A stretch of DNA of 19,694 nucleotides from a virus (lineage: Duplodnaviria; Heunggongvirae; Uroviricota; Caudoviricetes), in IMG/VR virus record IMGVR_UViG_2703718835_000001, positions 1 to 19,694 of that record; one strand, given 5' to 3'. Made by a program: the position numbers and the translations under genes. Under the pieces are notes generated by a model. It saw only the letters and a list, made by a program, of their open reading frames with translations. It did no database searches and was not told the origin of the DNA. Position 1 is the first letter of the stretch. Each line of letters begins with the position of its first letter. Shown in pieces: positions 73 through 11,036 of this stretch.

Positions 73-930
73 ATGAGCACCATCCTGAAATGGGCGGGAA
101 ATAAAACCGCCGTAATATCCGAACTGAAAAAACATCTTCCTGCTGGTCCGCGACTAGTTGAACCTTTCGCGGGTTCCTGTGCTGTGATGATGGAGACGGA
201 TTATCCCTGCTATCTGGTTGCGGATATTAATCCTGATTTAATCAACCTCTATAAAAAGGTTGCCGCTGATTGTGAATCGTTTATATCTCGCGCCAAAGTT
301 TTATTTGAGATCGCAAACAGGGAGGTGGCTTATTACAACATAAGGCAGGAGTTTAATTACTCAACTGAAATTACTGATTTCATGAAAGCGGTATATTTCC
401 TGTATCTCAATCGTCACGGTTACCGTGGGTTATGTCGCTATAACAAGAGCGGGCATTTCAACATTCCCTACGGTAATTATAAAAATCCGTATTTCCCTGA
501 AAAAGAAATTCGCGCTTTTGCAGAAAAAGCCCAGCGAGCAACGTTTATCTGCGCCAGCTTTGATGAAACGCTGGCGATGTTGAAGGCGGGGGATGTGGTG
601 TATTGCGATCCGCCTTATGACGGTACGTTTTCCGGCTATCACGCTGACGGCTTTACTGAAGATGACCAGTATCACCTGGCATCCGTTCTTGAACATCGGT
701 CATCAGAAGGACATCCGGTCATTGTTTCTAACAGTGACACATCCTTGATCCGTTCGCTGTATCGCAATTTTACTCACCACTATATCAAGGTAAAACGCAG
801 CATCGGCGTAGCAGCTGGTGAGAGTAAATCAGCAACAGAAATCATTGCTGTTTCCGGGCCGCGCTGCTGGGTGGGATTTGATTATTCGCGTGGCGTGGAT
901 AGTTCTGCCGTGTACGGAGTACGTGCATGA
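73..930 (+). CDS. dam: DNA adenine methyltransferase, Dam family (probable GATC N6-adenine MTase)
   Basis: 285-aa ORF with GGAGGT ribosome-binding site upstream. N-terminus 'LKWAGNK...[11 protein letters not shown]' (AdoMet-binding motif I) and catalytic 'DPPY' motif. Collinear similarity to E. coli Dam throughout, e.g. 'FLYLNR.GY.GLCRYN' and 'VYCDPPY'. Confidence 0.9.
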
Positions 931-3341
931 GCCATGCCGATATGAGCAACTGCTGCGGCTTTAACGAGGCTGCCGCATCGTTCTCATGGAACAGCCCGAA
1001 AAAGGCCATTAACCCTTATCTGGACCCGGCGGAAGTTGCGCCGGTTTCTGCGCTTTCAAACCTGATCACTCTGTACGCTGCCGATAACGAGCAGGAACAA
1101 CTGCGCCGCGAGGCACTGAGTGATCAGGTCTGGGAGCGTTATTTCTTTAATGAATCCCGTGATCCTGTCCAACGCGAAATAGAGCAGGATAAGCTCATTA
1201 GCCGGGCAAAGTTGGCGCATGAGCAGCAGCGTTTTAACCCGGACATGGTCATTCTGGCAGACGTCAGCGCCCAGCCCTCCCATATCAGCAAGCCGCTGAT
1301 GCAACGTATTGAATACTTCAGCAGCCTGGGCAGGCCAAAGGCTTATTCCCGCTATTTACGTGAGACGATTAAGCCATGTCTGGAACGACTGGAGCATGTA
1401 CGCGACAGCCAGCTATCTGCATCTTTTCGTTTTATGGCAAGCCATGAAGGGCTGGACGGCCTGCTGATTCTGCCTGAAATGAGTCAGGATCAGGTGAAAC
1501 GCCTGTCTACTCTTGTCGCTGCGCATATGAGCATGTGCCTTGATGCAGCTTGTGGTGATTTGTATGCCACCGATGACGTTAAGCCAGAAGAAATCCGCAA
1601 GACATGGGAAAAGGTGGCAGCGGAAACCCTGCGTCTGGATGTCATCCCGCCTGCGTTTGAGCAACTCCGTCGGAAAAGAAACCGCCGTAAACCCGTGCCC
1701 TATGAACTCATTCCGGGTTCGCTGGCGCGTATGTTGTGCGCCGACTGGTGGTACCGGAAATTATGGAAAATGCGTTGCGAATGGCGGGAAGAGCAGTTGC
1801 GTGCTGTCTGCCTGGTCAGCAAAAAAGCATCTCCCTATGTCAGCTATGAAGCCGTGATGCATAAACGTGAGCAGCGCCGCAAGTCACTGGAGTTTTTCCG
1901 TTCTCATGAACTGGTGAACGAAGAGGGCGACACGCTGGATATGGAAGACGTGGTAAACGCCAGCAGCAGCAACCCGGCGCACCGCCGCAATGAGATGATG
2001 GCCTGTGTTAAAGGTCTGGAGCTTATCGCGGAAATGCGCGGTGACTGCGCCGTTTTCTACACCATTACCTGTCCGTCACGTTTCCATTCCACGCTCAATA
2101 ACGGCAGACCAAACCCAACCTGGACAAATGCGACGGTAAGACAAAGCAGCGATTATCTGGTCGGCATGTTTGCTGCATTTCGTAAGGCGATGCACAAAGC
2201 CGGGTTGCGCTGGTATGGCGTGCGGGTGGCTGAGCCGCATCATGACGGTACAGTTCACTGGCACCTGTTGTGTTTCATGCGCAAAAAAGACCGCCGCGCC
2301 ATTACTGCATTGTTGCGTAAGTTTGCCATCCGTGAAGACCGCGAGGAACTGGGTAATAACACTGGTCCACGCTTTAAATCTGAGCTGATAAACCCGCGCA
2401 AAGGAACGCCGACAAGCTACATCGCGAAATACATCAGTAAGAACATTGACGGGCGTGGTCTGGCTGGCGAGATCAGCAAGGAAACGGGTAAATCCCTGCG
2501 TGATAACGCTGAATACGTTAATGCCTGGGCGTCTCTGCATCGTGTTCAGCAATTCCGCTTCTTTGGTATTCCGGGACGTCAGGCTTACCGTGAACTTCGC
2601 TTGCTGGCTGGTCAGGCGGCAAGGCAACAGGGTGACAAAAAAGCAGGTGCGCCGGTACTGGATAACCCGCGTCTTGATGCCATTCTGGCTGCTGCTGATG
2701 CTGGTTGTTTTGCCACCTACATCATGAAGCAGGGCGGCGTACTGGTTCCCCGCAAATATCACCTCATCAGAACCGCTTATGAAATCAACGAAGAGCCAAC
2801 CGCCTATGGCGATCACGGTATTCGTATTTATGGCATCTGGTCACCCATTGCAGAGGGCAAGATCTGCACTCATGCAGTGAAGTGGAAAATGGTTCGTAAG
2901 GCCGTTGACGTTCAGGAGGCGGCAGCCGACCAGGGCGCTTGCGCCCCTTGGACTCGTGGCAATAACTGTCCCCTTGCTGAAAATTTGTACCAACAAGGGA
3001 AAGACAAATCAGCTGATGGAGATACCAGAACGGATATCACCCGCATGGATGACAAGGAGTTGCACGATTACCTGCACAGTATGAGCAAAAAAGAGCGCCG
3101 GGAACTGGCAGCAAGGTTACGCCTGGTGAAACCGAAACGGCGTAAAGACTACAAACAGCGAATTACAGATCATCAGCGACAGCAGCTCGTGTATGAACTG
3201 AAGTCCAGGGGATTTGATGGCAGCGAGAAAGAGGTCGATTTACTGCTTCGCGGCGGCAGTATTCCGTCAGGAGCAGGCCTGCGTATCTTCTATCGAAACC
3301 AGCGTTTGCAGGAAGATGATAAGTGGCGAAACCTGTATTAA
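927..3341 (+). CDS. A: Rolling-circle replication initiation endonuclease, P2 gpA family
   Basis: 804-aa ORF. Contains '[13 protein letters not shown]' (HUH-type metal-binding motif) and '[12 protein letters not shown]' (catalytic tyrosine region), as remembered for P2 gpA. The start overlaps the dam stop (ATGA); the true start may be a downstream Met. Confidence 0.88.
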
Positions 3342-3433
3342 TTACGCGGGTTAACAATTCGTGCTCTTAATAATACCAGGCATATCAGGCTGATGAGCGT
3401 AAAAAAACGTTTTACATCAGTAAGATTATTATA

Positions 3434-3453
3434 TACTGTAAATATAAACAGTG
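3434..3453 (+). promoter_or_regulatory. LexA (SOS) box overlapping a sigma70-like promoter
   Basis: TACTGTAAATATAAACAGTG fits CTGT-N8-ACAG with an AT-rich spacer (consensus TACTGTATATATATACAGTA). It overlaps a candidate -10 (TATACT/TACTGT), with a -35-like TTTACA at 3411-3416, about 40 bp upstream of the ATG at 3494. Confidence 0.65.
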
Positions 3454-3493
3454 GTTATGTATACAGTATTGCTTTGGTGTCATAGGAGGAAAG

Positions 3494-3682
3494 ATGCAGG
3501 ACTATTTTTTGGAGTCTTTGAAGCTCCAGCGCATTGATTTTTTTCTTAAGCTTGTAGCGGCCAGTGAGTGTAGTGATGAAGAGAAGGGGCTGGCTCTGCA
3601 GTGGGTTTCTGAATTGACTGATGAACTCATGGCAAAAATCAGAAGCCACGAATACAACCGCTCAATGGATGTCATCAGCTGA
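3494..3682 (+). CDS. Small hypothetical protein (62 aa), first gene of a putative SOS-regulated operon
   Basis: Strong ribosome-binding site AGGAGG 5-6 nt upstream of ATG. Sits immediately downstream of the LexA box. No recognisable motif. Confidence 0.5.
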   Translation: MQDYFLESLKLQRIDFFLKLVAASECSDEEKGLALQWVSELTDELMAKIRSHEYNRSMDVIS

Positions 3683-3692
3683 GGTGACTTTT

Positions 3693-3926
3693 ATGCGCAT
3701 TGAAATAATGATCGATAAAGAGCAGAAGATTAGCCAGTCTACCCTGGACGCCCTTGAATCCGAGCTTTACCGCAATCTGCGCCCCCTGTATCCCAAAACG
3801 GTAATTCGTATCCGTAAAGGTAGCTCTAACGGTGTGGAACTGACCGGACTGCAACTGGACGAAGAAAGGAAGCAAGTGATGAAAATTATGCAGAAGGTGT
3901 GGGAAGACGACAGCTGGCTGCATTAA
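3693..3926 (+). CDS. DinI-like damage-inducible protein (DinI/ImpC/Tum C-terminal family)
   Basis: 77-aa product 'MRIEIMIDKEQ...LDALESELYRNL...YPKTVIRIRKGSSNGVELTGL...ERKQVMKIMQKVWEDDSW' aligns collinearly with E. coli DinI ('MRIEVTIAK...IDALAGELSRRI...EILQETWE', from memory). Ribosome-binding site GAGGTG upstream. The ORF track lists a longer 3621..3926 frame; the internal ATG at 3693 is preferred. Confidence 0.82.
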   Translation: MRIEIMIDKEQKISQSTLDALESELYRNLRPLYPKTVIRIRKGSSNGVELTGLQLDEERKQVMKIMQKVWEDDSWLH

Positions 3927-4026
3927 GAAACGTTGCTGGCGTCTGAACTTGCTTCTGGCGTCAGCAAGGTTGAACACCAAGCCCTTGCGAGGCGTTAGCT
4001 CTGTAGTGCATGTCTATGCCGCATGA

Positions 4027-4098
4027 GATCGCATGATCGTTTGAGGATCGTTTTTGCTAAGGCCCGCCAGAACTGGCGGGCTTTTGCGTAGATCATGC
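4027..4098. repeat. Cluster of four GATC (Dam) sites with a flanking 8-bp inverted repeat
   Basis: GATC at 4027-4030, 4035-4038, 4046-4049 and 4091-4094: four sites in 68 bp, against roughly 0.3 expected by chance. GCATGATC (4031-4038) and GATCATGC (4091-4098) form an inverted repeat flanking the terminator hairpin. Confidence 0.6.
4062..4085 (+). terminator. Rho-independent terminator downstream of the DinI-like gene
   Basis: GC-rich inverted repeat GCCCGCCAG / CTGGCGGGC (4062-4070 / 4073-4081) followed by TTTT (4082-4085). Confidence 0.6.
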
Positions 4099-4130
4099 AG
4101 GTGCATGAAAACCACTACATAAAGCGGGCA

Positions 4131-4156
4131 GGCGTGGCGGGGATACGAGTGCGCGC
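4131..4156. other. Putative cos (cohesive-end) site
   Basis: GGCGTGGCGGGGATACGAG followed by TGCGCGC. The first 13 nt match the remembered 19-nt cohesive ends of P2 (GGCGAGGCGGGGAAAGCAC) and 186 (GGCGTGGCGGGGAAAGCAT). The assignment rests on memory only. Confidence 0.4.
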
Positions 4157-4231
4157 AATACGGTTCGATAAGAATTCACTTCGACTATGTTTTTAGATAA
4201 TCTGGCAATAAAAGGATGAGGAGAATGGCAA

Positions 4232-5473
4232 ATGCAAAGAATAGTTTTTTACTCTTGGCAATCTGATTTAAATGGAAAATGTAATAGAAATTTAATTCAA
4301 GATGCTTTGGTTAGATCTCTAAAAGCAATAAAAAAGGATGAAACAGAAACATTGGAGCCAGTCTTGGATCGTGATACTAATGGTTTAAATGGCTCACCAT
4401 CAATTAGCGAAAGCATTTTTAATAAAATATCACTTTCAGATGTTTTTGTTGCCGATGTTTCTATCATAAATGGAAGGTCTGAGGATAAGAAGACACCTAA
4501 TCCAAATGTTTTGATTGAATTAGGATATGCAGTATCCCAGCTAGGCTGGGATAGAGTAATCATGGTCCAGAATACATTTTATGGTTCTCCAGAAGAACTT
4601 CCTTTTGACTTAAGAGGACGGAGGGTAATTGCATATACTATGGACCCTGATAGTGATTCAAAACCTGAGGTAAGAAGCTTACTGCAAGGGCGACTTGAAA
4701 CTGCATTAAGGGAGTCCTTGAGTGATTCAAGCCAAGGAGCTATTTCTTCAGGTTTAAATGCACCAATATGGTGGGGGGAGTGGTACAAGGACAATCGCAG
4801 AAGTAATTTTGGCAAATTATTTATTCGTGAAACATCGTCAAATGGTTTTCTTTTTGATTTAGTAGTTATGAATGGATCACATTCTGGGAGTATTACAGGA
4901 GAGGCGGTTTTTGTAGCTAGAGATTCAGCTTACGCTAGAATAAAAATACCTGGAAGTAATGAATTTGGCGAGTTGAGTTTTAGGCGCAGCATATTTGATG
5001 GTAAACGATATATTAGGATAAGTGAGACCGTTAGTTGTCAATACTGGCGAGGTATGGGGGCCTTTTTTGATGGTGAGTTTCGTTGTGCAGAGGATCATTT
5101 GTTTTTATTTGGTTTTGCAAATGAAATGGAACTTCAGAGATTATACAACGTTATGGGGCAATATTACTTTGAACTGAAAAAAGTGATGGAGCAAATAGGT
5201 GAGCGCGATAATCTTGATACTTTTGTCGCAAAGGCTTATCAGGGAGGAGTTAGAGGACTTTATACCATTGCGGAAGGTATGGTGATGTTTGGTAGAGAGG
5301 GCGAGATATGGGCTATTTATCTCAATGATGGTGAAATTCGTTATTTCACAAATGTACATAAATGGAAAAAAACTATTCCAAAAACTTTTGAACAGTGGCG
5401 AGAACGATTTCCAGAGATTGAAATAAATTATGGAGGTGATATCTCGACACTTCCTACACAAGAAGATTTATAG
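4232..5473 (+). CDS. Cargo protein (413 aa) with N-terminal nucleoside 2-deoxyribosyltransferase/Rcl-like (SLOG/TIR-like fold) domain and uncharacterised C-terminal domain; candidate antiphage effector
   Basis: Ribosome-binding site AGGAGA 7 nt upstream. Markedly AT-rich against GC-rich phage flanks. The N-terminal 'RIVFYSWQSD' strand and 'NPNVLIELGYAVSQLGWDRVIMV' (Glu96, codon 4517-4519) resemble the catalytic-glutamate region of nucleoside deoxyribosyltransferases ('GMELGYALSQGKYVLLV', from memory). No Walker A motif, so it is not Old-like. The C-terminal ~270 aa have no recognisable motif. Confidence 0.75.
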   Translation: MQRIVFYSWQSDLNGKCNRNLIQDALVRSLKAIKKDETETLEPVLDRDTNGLNGSPSISESIFNKISLSDVFVADVSIINGRSEDKKTPNPNVLIELGYAVSQLGWDRVIMVQNTFYGSPEELPFDLRGRRVIAYTMDPDSDSKPEVRSLLQGRLETALRESLSDSSQGAISSGLNAPIWWGEWYKDNRRSNFGKLFIRETSSNGFLFDLVVMNGSHSGSITGEAVFVARDSAYARIKIPGSNEFGELSFRRSIFDGKRYIRISETVSCQYWRGMGAFFDGEFRCAEDHLFLFGFANEMELQRLYNVMGQYYFELKKVMEQIGERDNLDTFVAKAYQGGVRGLYTIAEGMVMFGREGEIWAIYLNDGEIRYFTNVHKWKKTIPKTFEQWRERFPEIEINYGGDISTLPTQEDL

Positions 5474-5524: not shown

Positions 5525-6568
5525 TTAAGTTATGTTGGGTTCAAATGCATAAGAATCAAAACGAATTACTTGTTCATTGGCCCAGCTATTCAGTTCCTCA
5601 AAACGCTTCTGTAGGGGGATCAGTTCATTTCGAACAAAAACACGGCTGGCCTTCTCCACATCCCCAAACCCCCCGACATTATTCGGCATAATCCCCATCA
5701 TCTGTGGCGGAACACGATGCGCCGCCATCATGTCATCGCGGCTGACGTTCTTGATGTTCAGAAATTCATCTTTCGCCGCGACTTCTGACAACGGGATGAT
5801 CTGAAGCCCGTCTTTTTTGCCGTTAGGCGAGTACATAAACAGGTTGCGGAAGTTGCCCGGGCCTTTGGCGCTTTTCATTGCGTTGCGGAGGTTGTTCACG
5901 TCCTCCTGGTTCTGCGCGGCATCGGTCATGTACATGATGAAGCCTGCATGACTGCCGTTAATGTAATACTTGCGGCGGAACAGCGTGGCGGACTCGTTGA
6001 GCAGGGCTGATGGAATGGCAGAAAGATAACCGGGCAGGCCGTAGATCTCCTGGTTGATATCCGGTTCCATCAGGTGAAAAATGCTGCCTTTCGTGAACTG
6101 ATACGGCTGGGTTGTCATACCGTATTGCACAAACCAGTAGGTATCCAGGTCTAACCCGCGTCGGGTGTATTTTGCCAGAGCAGGCTCAAGGGCGATAACT
6201 TCACCGAAGCGGTTCGTGCGTTTCTCCAGGTAGGCGTTACCAAATACCAGATAGTCCTGCACAAAACGTGAAAAAGCCTGCTGGCTGAGCAGCGGGTGAG
6301 GGATGTAGGTGCTGGTCAGAATGTTGCACTTTACTGCAATCGGTGAGCTGTGATGCACGGCGGCGCGAAAGGTGCGCGCCAGCCCGTCGAAACTCACTGG
6401 CGGCTCATACCAACGATCTGTCTGTACGCATTCCACATAGTCCAGCAGTTCGCGGCGGTCCAGAACAGGAACGGGATCACCGAAGCTGAATGCTTCGGCT
6501 GAAGTTTGGTTTTTATGCTGGATCTGATTCGTCGCCGCAGCGCGGTTTTTCTTACTCTTTCCCATCAA
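5525..6568 (-). CDS. Q: Portal protein, P2 gpQ family
   Basis: 347-aa ORF, convergent with the upstream cargo gene and overlapping the P stop by 4 bp. Position and size match P2 Q (about 344 aa). Confidence 0.88.
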   Translation of the reverse strand: MMGKSKKNRAAATNQIQHKNQTSAEAFSFGDPVPVLDRRELLDYVECVQTDRWYEPPVSFDGLARTFRAAVHHSSPIAVKCNILTSTYIPHPLLSQQAFSRFVQDYLVFGNAYLEKRTNRFGEVIALEPALAKYTRRGLDLDTYWFVQYGMTTQPYQFTKGSIFHLMEPDINQEIYGLPGYLSAIPSALLNESATLFRRKYYINGSHAGFIMYMTDAAQNQEDVNNLRNAMKSAKGPGNFRNLFMYSPNGKKDGLQIIPLSEVAAKDEFLNIKNVSRDDMMAAHRVPPQMMGIMPNNVGGFGDVEKASRVFVRNELIPLQKRFEELNSWANEQVIRFDSYAFEPNIT

Positions 6569-8331
6569 AAAATCTCCACAATATTGCTGGTATTGGCGGA
6601 CTCGCCCTGCAGCGGTTCGTTAAACAGTGCGTGCATGGTTGCCCACGCCAGATCGGCGTGGCTGGCTTCTTCGCTGCGGCTGGCTTCATAGGTCGGGCGG
6701 TTGCCGCTGGCGGTGGTGGCGCGACGGATTGCCATAAATGACTGCGCAATGTCGGTGTGTCCGGCGTCAAACTCAAGACGGCGGTGGCTGATAATGTCGT
6801 AAGCCTTGAGTACCAGGGCGTTTTTAACGTTGGGGTTGTAGACAAACTCCCGGACGGCAGGAAAAAACGCTTTCACGTTCTCGTAAACCCCGTGACCAAC
6901 GCCGGTTGAGTCGATGCCGATATAGGTCACGTTGTACTGTTCGGTCAGTTTTTTGATGGCGTCAGCCTGGGCGCGAAAGTCCATCCCGCGCCACTGGTGA
7001 CGCTCAAGAATGCGAAACTTACCGCCCGGCACGGCTGGCGGTGCCAGCACCACGCATCCGGCACTGTCGCCGTTCTGCGTACCTTTTGCCGGGTCATAAC
7101 CGATCCACACTTCGCGCCAGCCAAATGGGCGCAGCGCCAGTGCATGAAAGTCGGTCCAGACTTCCCAGCTGTCCACCATGCACGCCTGCAGCTCGCTGAG
7201 CGGGAACACGGACGCGAGATCGTCCACAAACTCGCACATCAGCAGGTTCTGGTATTCGTCCGGGCTGTACTCCATGCGCAACTGGTCAAGGTCGAACAGG
7301 TTACAGCCGCCGCGCACTGCATCTTCCACGGTGACTATCTGGCGGTATTGCCCGTCTGCGCACAGCAGGCCGGGGGCCAGATTGCTGTGGGACAGGTCGA
7401 TGTCCACCTTGTCGGCTTTGTTGCGCCCACGGTTGAACAGCGCACCGGACCAGAACGGATAAGCACTGTGTGTCAGGCTGGATGGCGTGGAAAAATAGGT
7501 TTGTCGCCATTTTTTGTGAATAGCCATACCGGAAGCCACTTTGCGCAGCTCCTGGAATTTCGGTATCCAGAAATATTCATCCAGATACAGGTTGCCGTGG
7601 TAACTCTGAGCCGTGCGGGCATTGGTGCCGAGGAAGTAAAGCGTGGCCCCGTTAGGAAGCACCATCGGATCGCCTTTCAGCTCCACCTCGACTTCTTTGG
7701 CGAAGTCGATGATGTACTGCTTAAAGACGTGAGCCTGTGCCTTACTGGCAGAAAGGAAAATCTGGTTACGTCCGGTAAGCAGGGCGTCAATCAGGGCTTC
7801 ACGGGCAAAGTAAAAGGTCGCGCCGATCTGGCGTGACTTCAGCAGATTACGGATGCGGTTGGTTTTTCCTGCTTCCCACCAGTGGCGCTGGTAGTTGAAC
7901 ATGGAGGAATGGAAGATTTCTTCCAGCTTCTCAATCTGTTCATCGGTGAAAACATTCTTTTCAGGCTGACGGCGCGGGCCTTTGTTGCGGTTGGCGACGT
8001 TAGGGTTTAAATCGGCTTCGTTGCCGCCATTGTTAAACTTGCCGATCCGCGCGTGGCGCTCCGACTGGCGCGACAGCAGATCAATTTCTTTGAAATCTTT
8101 CCCTTCTTTGTGCTCCTTCATAATGAGCTGGCAGTAACGTGCGGCGGTGGTGAGCTGCATCTGATCCAGCGGCCCATAGTCACCCCACTTGTCGCGTTTT
8201 TTCCAGCTGTGAACGGTTGCAACTTTCTCGCCCAGCATTTCAGCAATGCGGGCTACGCGGTATCCCTGAAAGTACAGCAGCATGGCCTGCCGACGGGGAT
8301 CGAGATCTGCGGGTGTCAGTGTGGTGTTCAT
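6565..8331 (-). CDS. P: Terminase large (ATPase) subunit, P2 gpP family
   Basis: 588-aa ORF (P2 gpP is about 590 aa), divergent from O. The start codon overlaps the Q start region, as in P2. Confidence 0.88.
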   Translation of the reverse strand: MNTTLTPADLDPRRQAMLLYFQGYRVARIAEMLGEKVATVHSWKKRDKWGDYGPLDQMQLTTAARYCQLIMKEHKEGKDFKEIDLLSRQSERHARIGKFNNGGNEADLNPNVANRNKGPRRQPEKNVFTDEQIEKLEEIFHSSMFNYQRHWWEAGKTNRIRNLLKSRQIGATFYFAREALIDALLTGRNQIFLSASKAQAHVFKQYIIDFAKEVEVELKGDPMVLPNGATLYFLGTNARTAQSYHGNLYLDEYFWIPKFQELRKVASGMAIHKKWRQTYFSTPSSLTHSAYPFWSGALFNRGRNKADKVDIDLSHSNLAPGLLCADGQYRQIVTVEDAVRGGCNLFDLDQLRMEYSPDEYQNLLMCEFVDDLASVFPLSELQACMVDSWEVWTDFHALALRPFGWREVWIGYDPAKGTQNGDSAGCVVLAPPAVPGGKFRILERHQWRGMDFRAQADAIKKLTEQYNVTYIGIDSTGVGHGVYENVKAFFPAVREFVYNPNVKNALVLKAYDIISHRRLEFDAGHTDIAQSFMAIRRATTASGNRPTYEASRSEEASHADLAWATMHALFNEPLQGESANTSNIVEIF

Positions 8332-10385: not shown

Positions 10386-11036
10386 ATGAGCCTGAGTCCC
10401 GCACGGCAGCATCGCCTGCGCGTTCAGGCTGAACAGGCCGCCCGCGAGGGCGGCAGCGTTCGCCACGCGTCGGGCTATGACCTGATGCTGCTGCAACTGG
10501 CGGAAGACCGACGCCGTCTCAAGGGCGTTCAGTCCACGGTGAAAAAAGCGGAAATAAAGGTGGAGCTGCTGCCGAAATATGCCGCCTGGGCGGAGGGCGT
10601 CCTGGCTGCCGGAGGCGCTCAACAGGATGACGTGCTGATGTACGTGATGCTGTGGCGCATTGATGCCGGAGATTATGCCGGGGCGCTGGAGATTGGGCGT
10701 CATGCCCTGCGTCATGGCTGGGTGATGCCGCTGGGTAACCGCAACGTGCAGACCGTGCTGGCAGAGGAAATGGCAGATGCAGCCCAGAGCGCAATGCTTG
10801 CCGCCACCGGCTTTGATGCCGATCTGTTGCTGCAGACGCTGGAGCTGACAGACGGTCTGGATATGCCGGACCAGTCACGGGCGCGTCTGCATAAAGCGAT
10901 TGGCGCTGTCCTGAGTGAAAGCAATCCGGCTTCCGCCCTTAATCATATCAACCATGCGTTACAGCTCGATCCCCGCTGTGGCGTGAAAAAAGACAAACAG
11001 CAGCTGGAGCGCAGACTGCGCAATGACAGCCGCTGA
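10386..11036 (+). CDS. M: Terminase small (endonuclease) subunit, P2 gpM family
   Basis: 216-aa ORF directly after N. Motifs 'RVQAEQAAREGG..RHA', 'QDDVLMYVMLWRID.GDYAGALEIGR' and 'TLELT...DMPD' match remembered P2 gpM. Confidence 0.85.
   Translation: MSLSPARQHRLRVQAEQAAREGGSVRHASGYDLMLLQLAEDRRRLKGVQSTVKKAEIKVELLPKYAAWAEGVLAAGGAQQDDVLMYVMLWRIDAGDYAGALEIGRHALRHGWVMPLGNRNVQTVLAEEMADAAQSAMLAATGFDADLLLQTLELTDGLDMPDQSRARLHKAIGAVLSESNPASALNHINHALQLDPRCGVKKDKQQLERRLRNDSR

Follow-up and report, generated by a model that had tools for sequence, protein, structure and literature searches.

The stretch of DNA analysed here, referred to below as the window, is a 19,694-nt piece (19.7 kb) of the virus record IMGVR_UViG_2703718835_000001. 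It forms part of a P2-like (Peduoviridae) prophage of the Fels-2/SEN8 type, and the nearest records to it are Peduoviridae of Escherichia coli, Klebsiella, Salmonella and Yersinia. The window runs in the order Dam, gpA, DinI, cos (the cohesive-end site), cargo, Q and P, with Q and P on the minus strand, and this order is shared by P2 and 186. The element of interest is a group of four GATC sites to the left of cos and, in particular, the two sites in the middle of that group, which form the pair GATC-N7-GATC that is termed the dyad in what follows. The features of the cos region are listed here, with coordinates counted along the window and offsets counted from cos.

4006-4036, plus strand: three direct GCATG(A) repeats, namely GTGCATG (4006-4012), CGCATGA (4020-4026) and CGCATGA (4030-4036)
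4027-4030: GATC site 1, at -104; sub-lineage-specific, column identity 0.6-0.84
4035-4049: conserved dyad GATC-N7-GATC, with sites at -96 and -85 from cos, 11 bp start to start
4059-4085, plus strand: predicted rho-independent terminator, with the hairpin AAGGCCCGCCA-GAAC-TGGCGGGCTTT at 4059-4084 and a T run at 4082-4085
4091-4094: GATC site 4, at -40; sub-lineage-specific, with just its TC belonging to the conserved TCATGCA repeat
4093-4108: TCATGCA and TGCATGA, an inverted pair at the beginning of the cos core, kept in all lineages and in satellites
4102-4156, plus strand: conserved cos core of 55 bp, made up of TGCATGAAAACC, 8 nt, AAGCGGGCA, the 19-nt end and TGCGCGC
4131-4149, plus strand: 19-nt cohesive-end sequence GGCGTGGCGGGGATACGAG, placed by alignment with the annotated cos of P2 and 186 and by identity with that of SEN8

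The four GATC sites (4027-4030, 4035-4038, 4046-4049 and 4091-4094) surround the terminator hairpin and all lie to the left of cos, from -104 to -40, with no further GATC between -40 and +180. An exact inverted repeat of 8 bp, GCATGATC (4031-4038) and GATCATGC (4091-4098), flanks the hairpin. The original prediction, made from the sequence of the window alone, had pointed to four GATC sites in 68 bp (against about 0.3 expected), arranged round a terminator hairpin with an 8-bp inverted repeat and lying 35-100 bp from a cos-like site; the positions and the arrangement were confirmed, the local expectation for a 68-bp stretch was recalculated as 0.23 GATC, and the distance was measured as 36-104 bp to the left of cos. 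The window as a whole contains 70 GATC sites against 65 expected in 19,694 bp, and when 70 sites were placed at random, at least four fell within 68 bp somewhere in the window in 8.9% of placements and at least three fell within 23 bp in 12.8%. The cluster is not significant from the window alone, and it becomes meaningful only through comparison with related loci. A further pair of GATC sites, 6 bp apart, occurs at 8298-8307, within the 5' end of the large-terminase gene and near the divergent late-promoter region.

The comparison covered about 180 related loci. A scan of IMG/VR with the cos-core pattern gave 120 loci, and a scan of one genome per species gave 62 with the cos type of the window, all from Enterobacterales except for a few doubtfully labelled metagenome bins. 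The cos lineage of the window was defined by a 19-mer ending in (A/C/G/T)TACGAG. Loci were classed by their neighbouring genes, with gpA, Q, Dam or DinI denoting a phage and a P4-type psu or integrase denoting a satellite. It was found that the dyad is present in 105 of the 114 phage-type loci with this cos type, across 26 distinct spacers (gtttgag, cgaaaag, caaaaag, ccaatag, tcaaaag, aaaaaag, cgcagag and others). All 105 phage loci scored with the dyad have the N7 spacing, which places both sites on one helical face. Column identities, computed over 90 unique phage modules, were as follows.

GCAT before the first GATC: 0.94-0.99
First GATC of the dyad: 0.98 at each base
Five variable spacer bases: 0.47-0.60
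AG on the 5' side of the second GATC: 0.97 and 0.94
Second GATC of the dyad: 0.96-0.98

The sequence on the 3' side of the dyad also varies freely, with an identity of 0.48-0.84 in the U-rich linker. Because the dyad is kept in 105 of 114 loci while its spacer takes 26 forms, the alignment indicates that purifying selection is clearly acting on the pair at 4035 and 4046 beside cos. The nine phage loci without one of the sites have each lost it through single base changes that are uncompensated, which implies that it is the sequence, and not a stem, that is under selection. Several of these nine loci show few nearby phage genes (where the flanks sufficed to judge), and some of them may be decaying prophages.

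The outer two sites have a different history. At the position of site 1 the relatives of the window have GAGATC, GAAATC, GAATCT, GAATTT or GGATCT, and at that of site 4 they have TAGATCATGC, TATGTCATGC or TATCTCATGC, with a weighted conservation at site 4 of 0.6 for G, 0.4 for A, 0.9 for T and 0.9 for C. As aligned, the sites at 4027 and 4091 are incidental, being by-products formed where the GCATGA/TCATGC repeats happen to be extended. They are confined to a sub-lineage, and the ‘cluster of four’ reads, on this alignment, as a conserved dyad with two lineage-specific additions. An extra GATC has been gained near -104/-105 in different contexts (GAGATCG and TGGATCT), and the flanks of intact GATC sites vary as well, to AAGATC, ATGATC, CGGATC, GAAGGATC or GCACGATC. 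P2 and 186 have no GATC from -170 to +50 of cos, and none was found in the 300-430 bp to the left of cos in relatives from Ralstonia and Stenotrophomonas. Many 186-type and some P2-type cos modules contain one conserved GATC (gcgGATCca) at -50, on the 3' side of a GC-rich inverted repeat (186-type examples are L029, L065, L113, L198 and L200).

A sharp contrast exists between phages and their satellites. The P4-like satellites, which are recognised by their alpha-primase, psu, delta and integrase genes together with defence cargo, have the dyad in none of the 19 loci with the same 19-nt cos end, as against the 105 of 114 phage loci (Fisher P = 1e-16, shared ancestry ignored). The three GCATG repeats, the TCATGCAGGTGCATGAAAACC block and the 19-mer are all retained in these satellites with unchanged spacing, and unrelated sequence fills the place that the dyad and terminator take in phages. 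Since the dyad is missing from P2, from 186 and from all 19 satellites, and lies outside the probable core, it would not be needed for recognition by terminase; from these alignments it is best described as a phage-specific accessory element outside the core terminase recognition signal. In one metagenome bin a satellite occurs together with a Dam-carrying phage, both with a cos of this family (L145 and L170).

The cos-like site on which the original prediction hinged is real, as its alignment with cos in P2 and 186 shows. The 19-mer GGCGTGGCGGGGATACGAG matches the P2 cos GGCGAGGCGGGGAAAGCAC at 14 of 19 positions, and the cos reported for phage SEN8 is the same 19-mer (PMC5427200). The deposited genome records of SEN8 and EtG both end exactly at window position 4130. 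On this alignment 4131-4149 is a P2-type cos, situated between the accessory genes on the gpA side and Q and on the strand opposite to Q-P. A 55-bp cos region has been described as needed for P2/P4 packaging (Ziermann and Calendar 1990, as cited in PMC3931495), to which the block at 4102-4156, common to P2, 186 and P4-type satellites in the alignment, probably corresponds; all four GATC sites are outside this block. The alignment with P2 and 186 also defines what is common to all lineages, namely the three left GCATG(A) repeats, the inverted TCATGCA, TGCAT(G/T)AAAACC, the 19-mer and TGCGCGC. The GCATG(A) repeats stay in register in P2, 186, the phages with this cos type and the P4-like satellites, and are probably the terminase-binding repeats of the left arm of cos. 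The array extends well beyond the 55-bp core that is quoted as sufficient, and the direct TGCATGA abuts AAAACC. An imperfect inverted repeat, CCACTACATAAAGCGG (4112-4127, minus strand), was flagged as terminator-like and lies inside the cos core near the cut; its arms vary by lineage (CCGC...GCGG and CCC...GGG), and their pairing may be preserved.

The extent of the module is apparent from eight related phages, in which identity to the window starts about 125 bp to the left of cos and stops about 27 bp to its right (about 4006-4158), with the flanking DNA on both sides consisting of unrelated cargo. By this comparison the conserved cos module of about 150 bp (about 4006-4156) is swapped as one block, with variable cargo to its left and right, and a variable-cargo hotspot beside cos has been described for P2-like phages (PMC9122126). 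A search with positions 3990-4160 found the module in 1221 of 5426 complete E. coli genomes, mostly once per genome, and eight of the copies in these genomes are on plasmids. Small open reading frames that are annotated over the cos module in some records were regarded as spurious, as they are destroyed by the spacer variants. Within the module, the terminator hairpin downstream of dinI folds at -19.3 kcal/mol and is present in both the minimum-energy and the centroid structures. Across 75 unique modules it is conserved, averaging -19 kcal/mol and followed by a U run of 3-5. Its stem is mostly conserved without compensatory change, so that the case for a terminator comes from energy and position. 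The element at 4059-4085 is predicted from its fold to end rightward transcription from dinI or from left-side cargo. A simple terminator scan missed this hairpin, probably as the stem extension consumes the T run, whilst the folding is clear. No Rfam family matched anywhere in the window at the gathering threshold, and 3900-4260 gave only noise (E > 6).

The genes of the window that bear on the interpretation are listed below.

73-930, plus strand: Dam, a D12-class N6-adenine methyltransferase (Pfam PF02086, E = 9e-75; E. coli Dam structures, E = 1e-72)
927-3341: gpA replication endonuclease, its start overlapped by the Dam stop
Between gpA and the DinI-family gene: open reading frame of 62 amino acids
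3693-3926, plus strand: DinI-family gene (Pfam DinI and PHROG 189; so annotated in relatives), with no other conserved gene between it and the cos module
4232-5473, plus strand: cargo open reading frame, TIR-like, variable and low in G+C, occupying the hotspot that separates cos from the portal gene Q
5525-6568, minus strand: portal gene, Q homologue (Pfam)
6565-8331, minus strand: large terminase gene, P homologue (Pfam)
10386-11036, plus strand: small terminase gene, gpM homologue (PHROG 74, E = 5e-88)

The assignment of 73-930 as a phage Dam, made in the original prediction, is borne out by both the domain match and the structural homology. Upstream of gpA, 29 of the 36 assessable loci of this cos type have a Dam homologue, as against none of the 20 P2/186-type loci; among the Dam-positive loci are phages with a gpA just 36% identical to that of the window. 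What stands between a DksA-like zinc-finger gene and gpA varies, as the loci L015, L034, L036, L044, L074 and L130 show: most phages of this cos type have Dam there, some have nothing (the zinc-finger gene standing directly before gpA), and L074 has a PAPS-reductase-like gene, as does 186 with orf84. Other methyltransferases are also found near gpA. In Salmonella phage SEN5 (L194, 8998-14486) three methyltransferase genes lie round gpA (Dam, a Dcm-type gene and another ‘DNA methylase’), and its GCAT-repeat cos-like end is without any GATC pair; the Aeromonas phage vB_AsaM_LPM4 (L201) has an N6_N4-type adenine methyltransferase just after gpA, plus a C5 methyltransferase. The cargo open reading frame of the window has a G+C of 0.33-0.41 and only a weak TIR similarity (Pfam CAP12/Pycsar TIR, E = 7e-6; PADLOC TIR effector, E = 2e-9), and the cargo that relatives carry at this cos-portal defence hotspot differs widely, including Hypoth_Ymh, ATP-binding/RloB and SEFIR proteins.

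Observed here are how the locus is built, how far it is conserved, its confinement to phages and the association of the lineage with Dam; any effect of methylation, the identity of a reader and an effect on packaging are inferred. The leading candidate, to which we would give somewhat less than even confidence, is that the dyad is a methylation-read accessory site that modulates the use of the phage's own cos. The GCAT before the first site belongs to the GCATGA repeat that is shared with the satellites, and so the two sites of the dyad have essentially only GATC in common. The flank variants that leave GATC intact, the extra GATC gained nearby in different contexts, the lack of GATC in the Ralstonia and Stenotrophomonas relatives and the association of Dam with this cos lineage also speak for a methylation reading. 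Paired GATC sites at 11-bp spacing on one helical face suit binding of SeqA to hemimethylated DNA, and the dyad has the geometry of such paired sites, with at least two GATC on the same helical face and no more than about 31 bp apart (here 11 bp). Adjoining the third GCATGA repeat and placed just upstream of the terminator, the dyad would have its state read through Dam methylation. It would be hemimethylated after rolling-circle replication, and in that state could be bound by SeqA, or a similar reader, beside the terminase repeats; the bound reader would hold back the use of cos until Dam had fully methylated the dyad. That Dam could be the one of the host, with the early-expressed phage Dam adding to it in most members. 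The Enterobacterales hosts are taken here to be Dam-positive, in which case host Dam could methylate the dyad anyway. Satellites without the dyad would escape such a methylation gate. A fuller version, in which a checkpoint keeps hemimethylated new phage circles from terminase, phage Dam speeds their release, SeqA or a phage reader does the blocking and satellites have shed the dyad, would also fit, although we consider it unlikely as a whole.

Several findings weigh against a methylation-read site, and many of them favour a site recognised, independently of methylation, by a sequence-specific protein of the phage or the host, the GATC being coincidental. Such a site might be an accessory one for the phage small terminase, or one for an end-binding or architectural protein, and would improve or time the use of cos by the phage, with satellites managing without it. 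The conserved blocks exceed GATC, extending to GCATGATC at the first site and to AGGATC at the second, where the AG (0.97 and 0.94) is nearly as conserved as the GATC. LPM4 has four AAGGATC repeats round its cos (at 8030), three to the left and one to the right, from about -126 to +83, and has no D12 Dam; this looks like a sequence-specific protein site that is larger than GATC. The dyad directly adjoins the third GCATGA repeat, and its 11-bp direct spacing fits tandem protein binding. It is also kept by phages of the lineage that lack Dam (at least 13 of 14 assessable, with six of seven in IMG/VR and, by reading of the alignment, all seven assessable in the species set), whereas Dam-carrying Peduoviridae with other cos regions, SEN5 and YenM_42.18 (the Dam of the latter being 52% identical), have no dyad near the cos-side region. 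The association between Dam and the cos lineage (Fisher P = 1e-9) ignores shared ancestry, and no published methylome data covering the dyad sites were found in the accessible literature. Judged across these loci, phage Dam is associated with the dyad-bearing lineage and appears to be neither necessary nor sufficient for the dyad. The idea that GATC at cos goes with Dam in phages generally was rejected on account of SEN5 and YenM_42.18. A relaxed constraint on the dyad in phages without Dam was also rejected, since they keep it. On the other side, a protein site has to contend with the GCAT flank of the first site being accounted for by the satellite-shared repeat, with the flank variants in which GATC stays intact, with satellites that are packaged through the same cos type without a dyad, and with the confinement of the Dam homologue to this lineage. 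We consider a methylation-independent protein site possible, and nearly as likely as a methylation-read one. Resemblance to Fis, IHF, OxyR and oriC 13-mer sites was considered (by eye, against consensus sequences), and none fits across the spacer variants.

The remaining explanations leave packaging aside. The dyad could belong, with the terminator, to a unit that closes the rightward early/SOS operon at its 3' end and is unrelated to cos or Dam, in which a GAUC/GAUC stem-loop acts in RNA stability, in termination efficiency or as a small RNA from the 3' untranslated region. Indeed, the dyad and the terminator are the two features of the -96 to -45 segment that phages have and satellites do not, the predicted fold pairs the two GAUC (with a 7-nt loop) ahead of a U-rich stretch and then the terminator, and the cos module always follows a rightward-transcribed gene. 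However, the 4-bp stem is weak and neither alternative complementary 4-mers nor compensatory changes were seen in it, the U-rich linker is poorly conserved, the dyad is retained in one sub-lineage whose hairpin is remodelled and whose U run is weak, Rfam gives no match, and the module stays beside cos whatever the upstream gene; we regard this explanation as improbable. That the cluster has no function, being a chance grouping preserved by recent common ancestry, would agree with its lack of significance within the window (P = 0.09-0.13) and with two of the four sites being sub-lineage accidents. It is highly improbable given that the dyad persists over many genera, with gpA identity down to 34-36%, 26 spacers and freely varying neighbours, and that the contrast of 105/114 phage with 0/19 satellite loci argues against drift. 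The original prediction had also allowed that methylation of the cluster might control expression of the adjacent cargo gene (4232-5473). Many Dam-regulated promoters carry clustered GATC sites, and the cluster lies about 140-200 bp upstream of the cargo gene, but this proximity is all that speaks for such control. A strong predicted terminator and the cos cleavage site stand between the two, and no promoter-like (sigma-70-like) site, whether for the cargo gene or for an antisense transcript, was found on either strand in 3400-4400. Homology to relatives ends at 4158, which implies that each cargo brings its own upstream DNA, and the dyad is kept with quite different cargo and even where Q directly follows cos. 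This option was dropped as scarcely credible.

The nearest functional parallel is the pac site of phage P1. According to Sternberg and Coulby, P1 pac reportedly consists of TGATCA/G hexamer repeats, its cleavage depends on Dam methylation, and P1 encodes its own Dam. The locus described here resembles P1 pac in having short GATC-containing repeats in an arm of the packaging site of a phage with a dam gene and, by analogy, methylation could plausibly gate the packaging of newly replicated DNA. It differs in belonging to a cos phage with a 19-nt cohesive end rather than a headful pac phage, in having two conserved sites on one side of the cut at a distance of 85-96 bp where P1 pac has seven sites flanking the cut, and in that its sites appear to be dispensable for recognition, to judge from the satellites, P2 and 186, which are without them. 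SeqA binds paired GATC sites in the sequestration of oriC and P1 oriR and in the activation of lambda pR. Such sites share with the dyad the placing of two GATC one helical turn apart, Dam-positive hosts and hemimethylation after replication, whilst the dyad offers two conserved sites (four in the window), is at neither an origin nor a promoter, and its binding by SeqA is hypothetical. In the manner of lambda cosB and cosQ, the dyad would be a short accessory element beside the nicking site that tunes the initiation or termination of packaging and is distinct from the cut site. There is no sequence relationship between them, and the lambda elements are needed for efficient packaging, unlike the dyad, which the satellites do without. 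The dyad is also unlike the Dam-dependent phase-variable promoters of pap, agn43 and opvAB, in that it has no promoter-like site around it and is followed by a terminator.

Closer relatives supply the architecture. The cos sites of P2, P4 and 186 have 19-nt 5' cohesive ends in a conserved core of 55 bp (Ziermann and Calendar 1990, as cited in PMC3931495 and PMC9122126), and the cos of the window agrees with them in architecture, in its position before the portal gene, in core sequence, in the GCATG repeats and in its flanking cargo hotspots. It departs from them in the 19-mer, which ends ...(A/C/G/T)TACGAG as opposed to ...AAAGCAC or ...AAAGCAT, and in a left arm that, unlike those of P2, 186 and P4, has a GATC dyad and a strong terminator. 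The t95b terminator of 186 and the 186-related Dam prophages of the retron Ec67 type have been described previously (Dodd and Egan 1996; Hsu et al. 1990; both as cited in PMC7826664). Shared with these are a rightward operon of the SOS/DinI type that ends in a terminator just to the left of cos and a Dam-carrying prophage family with cargo inserted beside cos. The 186 terminator stands further from cos, at -188 to -161 and thus beyond the conserved module, and 186 lacks the GATC dyad.

The cos module is common, both in E. coli (1221 of 5426 complete genomes) and across Enterobacterales, and the dyad within it provides an easily mutated target for asking whether Dam-carrying P2-like phages use adenine methylation to time or license packaging. 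To our knowledge, methylation-timed packaging has so far been known only at P1 pac. The contrast between 105/114 phage and 0/19 satellite loci separates the sequence required by the shared terminase (the 55-bp core together with the GCATG repeats) from sequence that only the helper has, and it bears on the competition between satellites and their helpers as well as on the design of P2/P4 cosmid vectors. If the checkpoint outlined above is true, it would constitute a previously unrecognised layer of conflict between helper phages and satellites; if the dyad instead acts independently of methylation, it still marks an undescribed accessory element of the cos sites of the P2 family.

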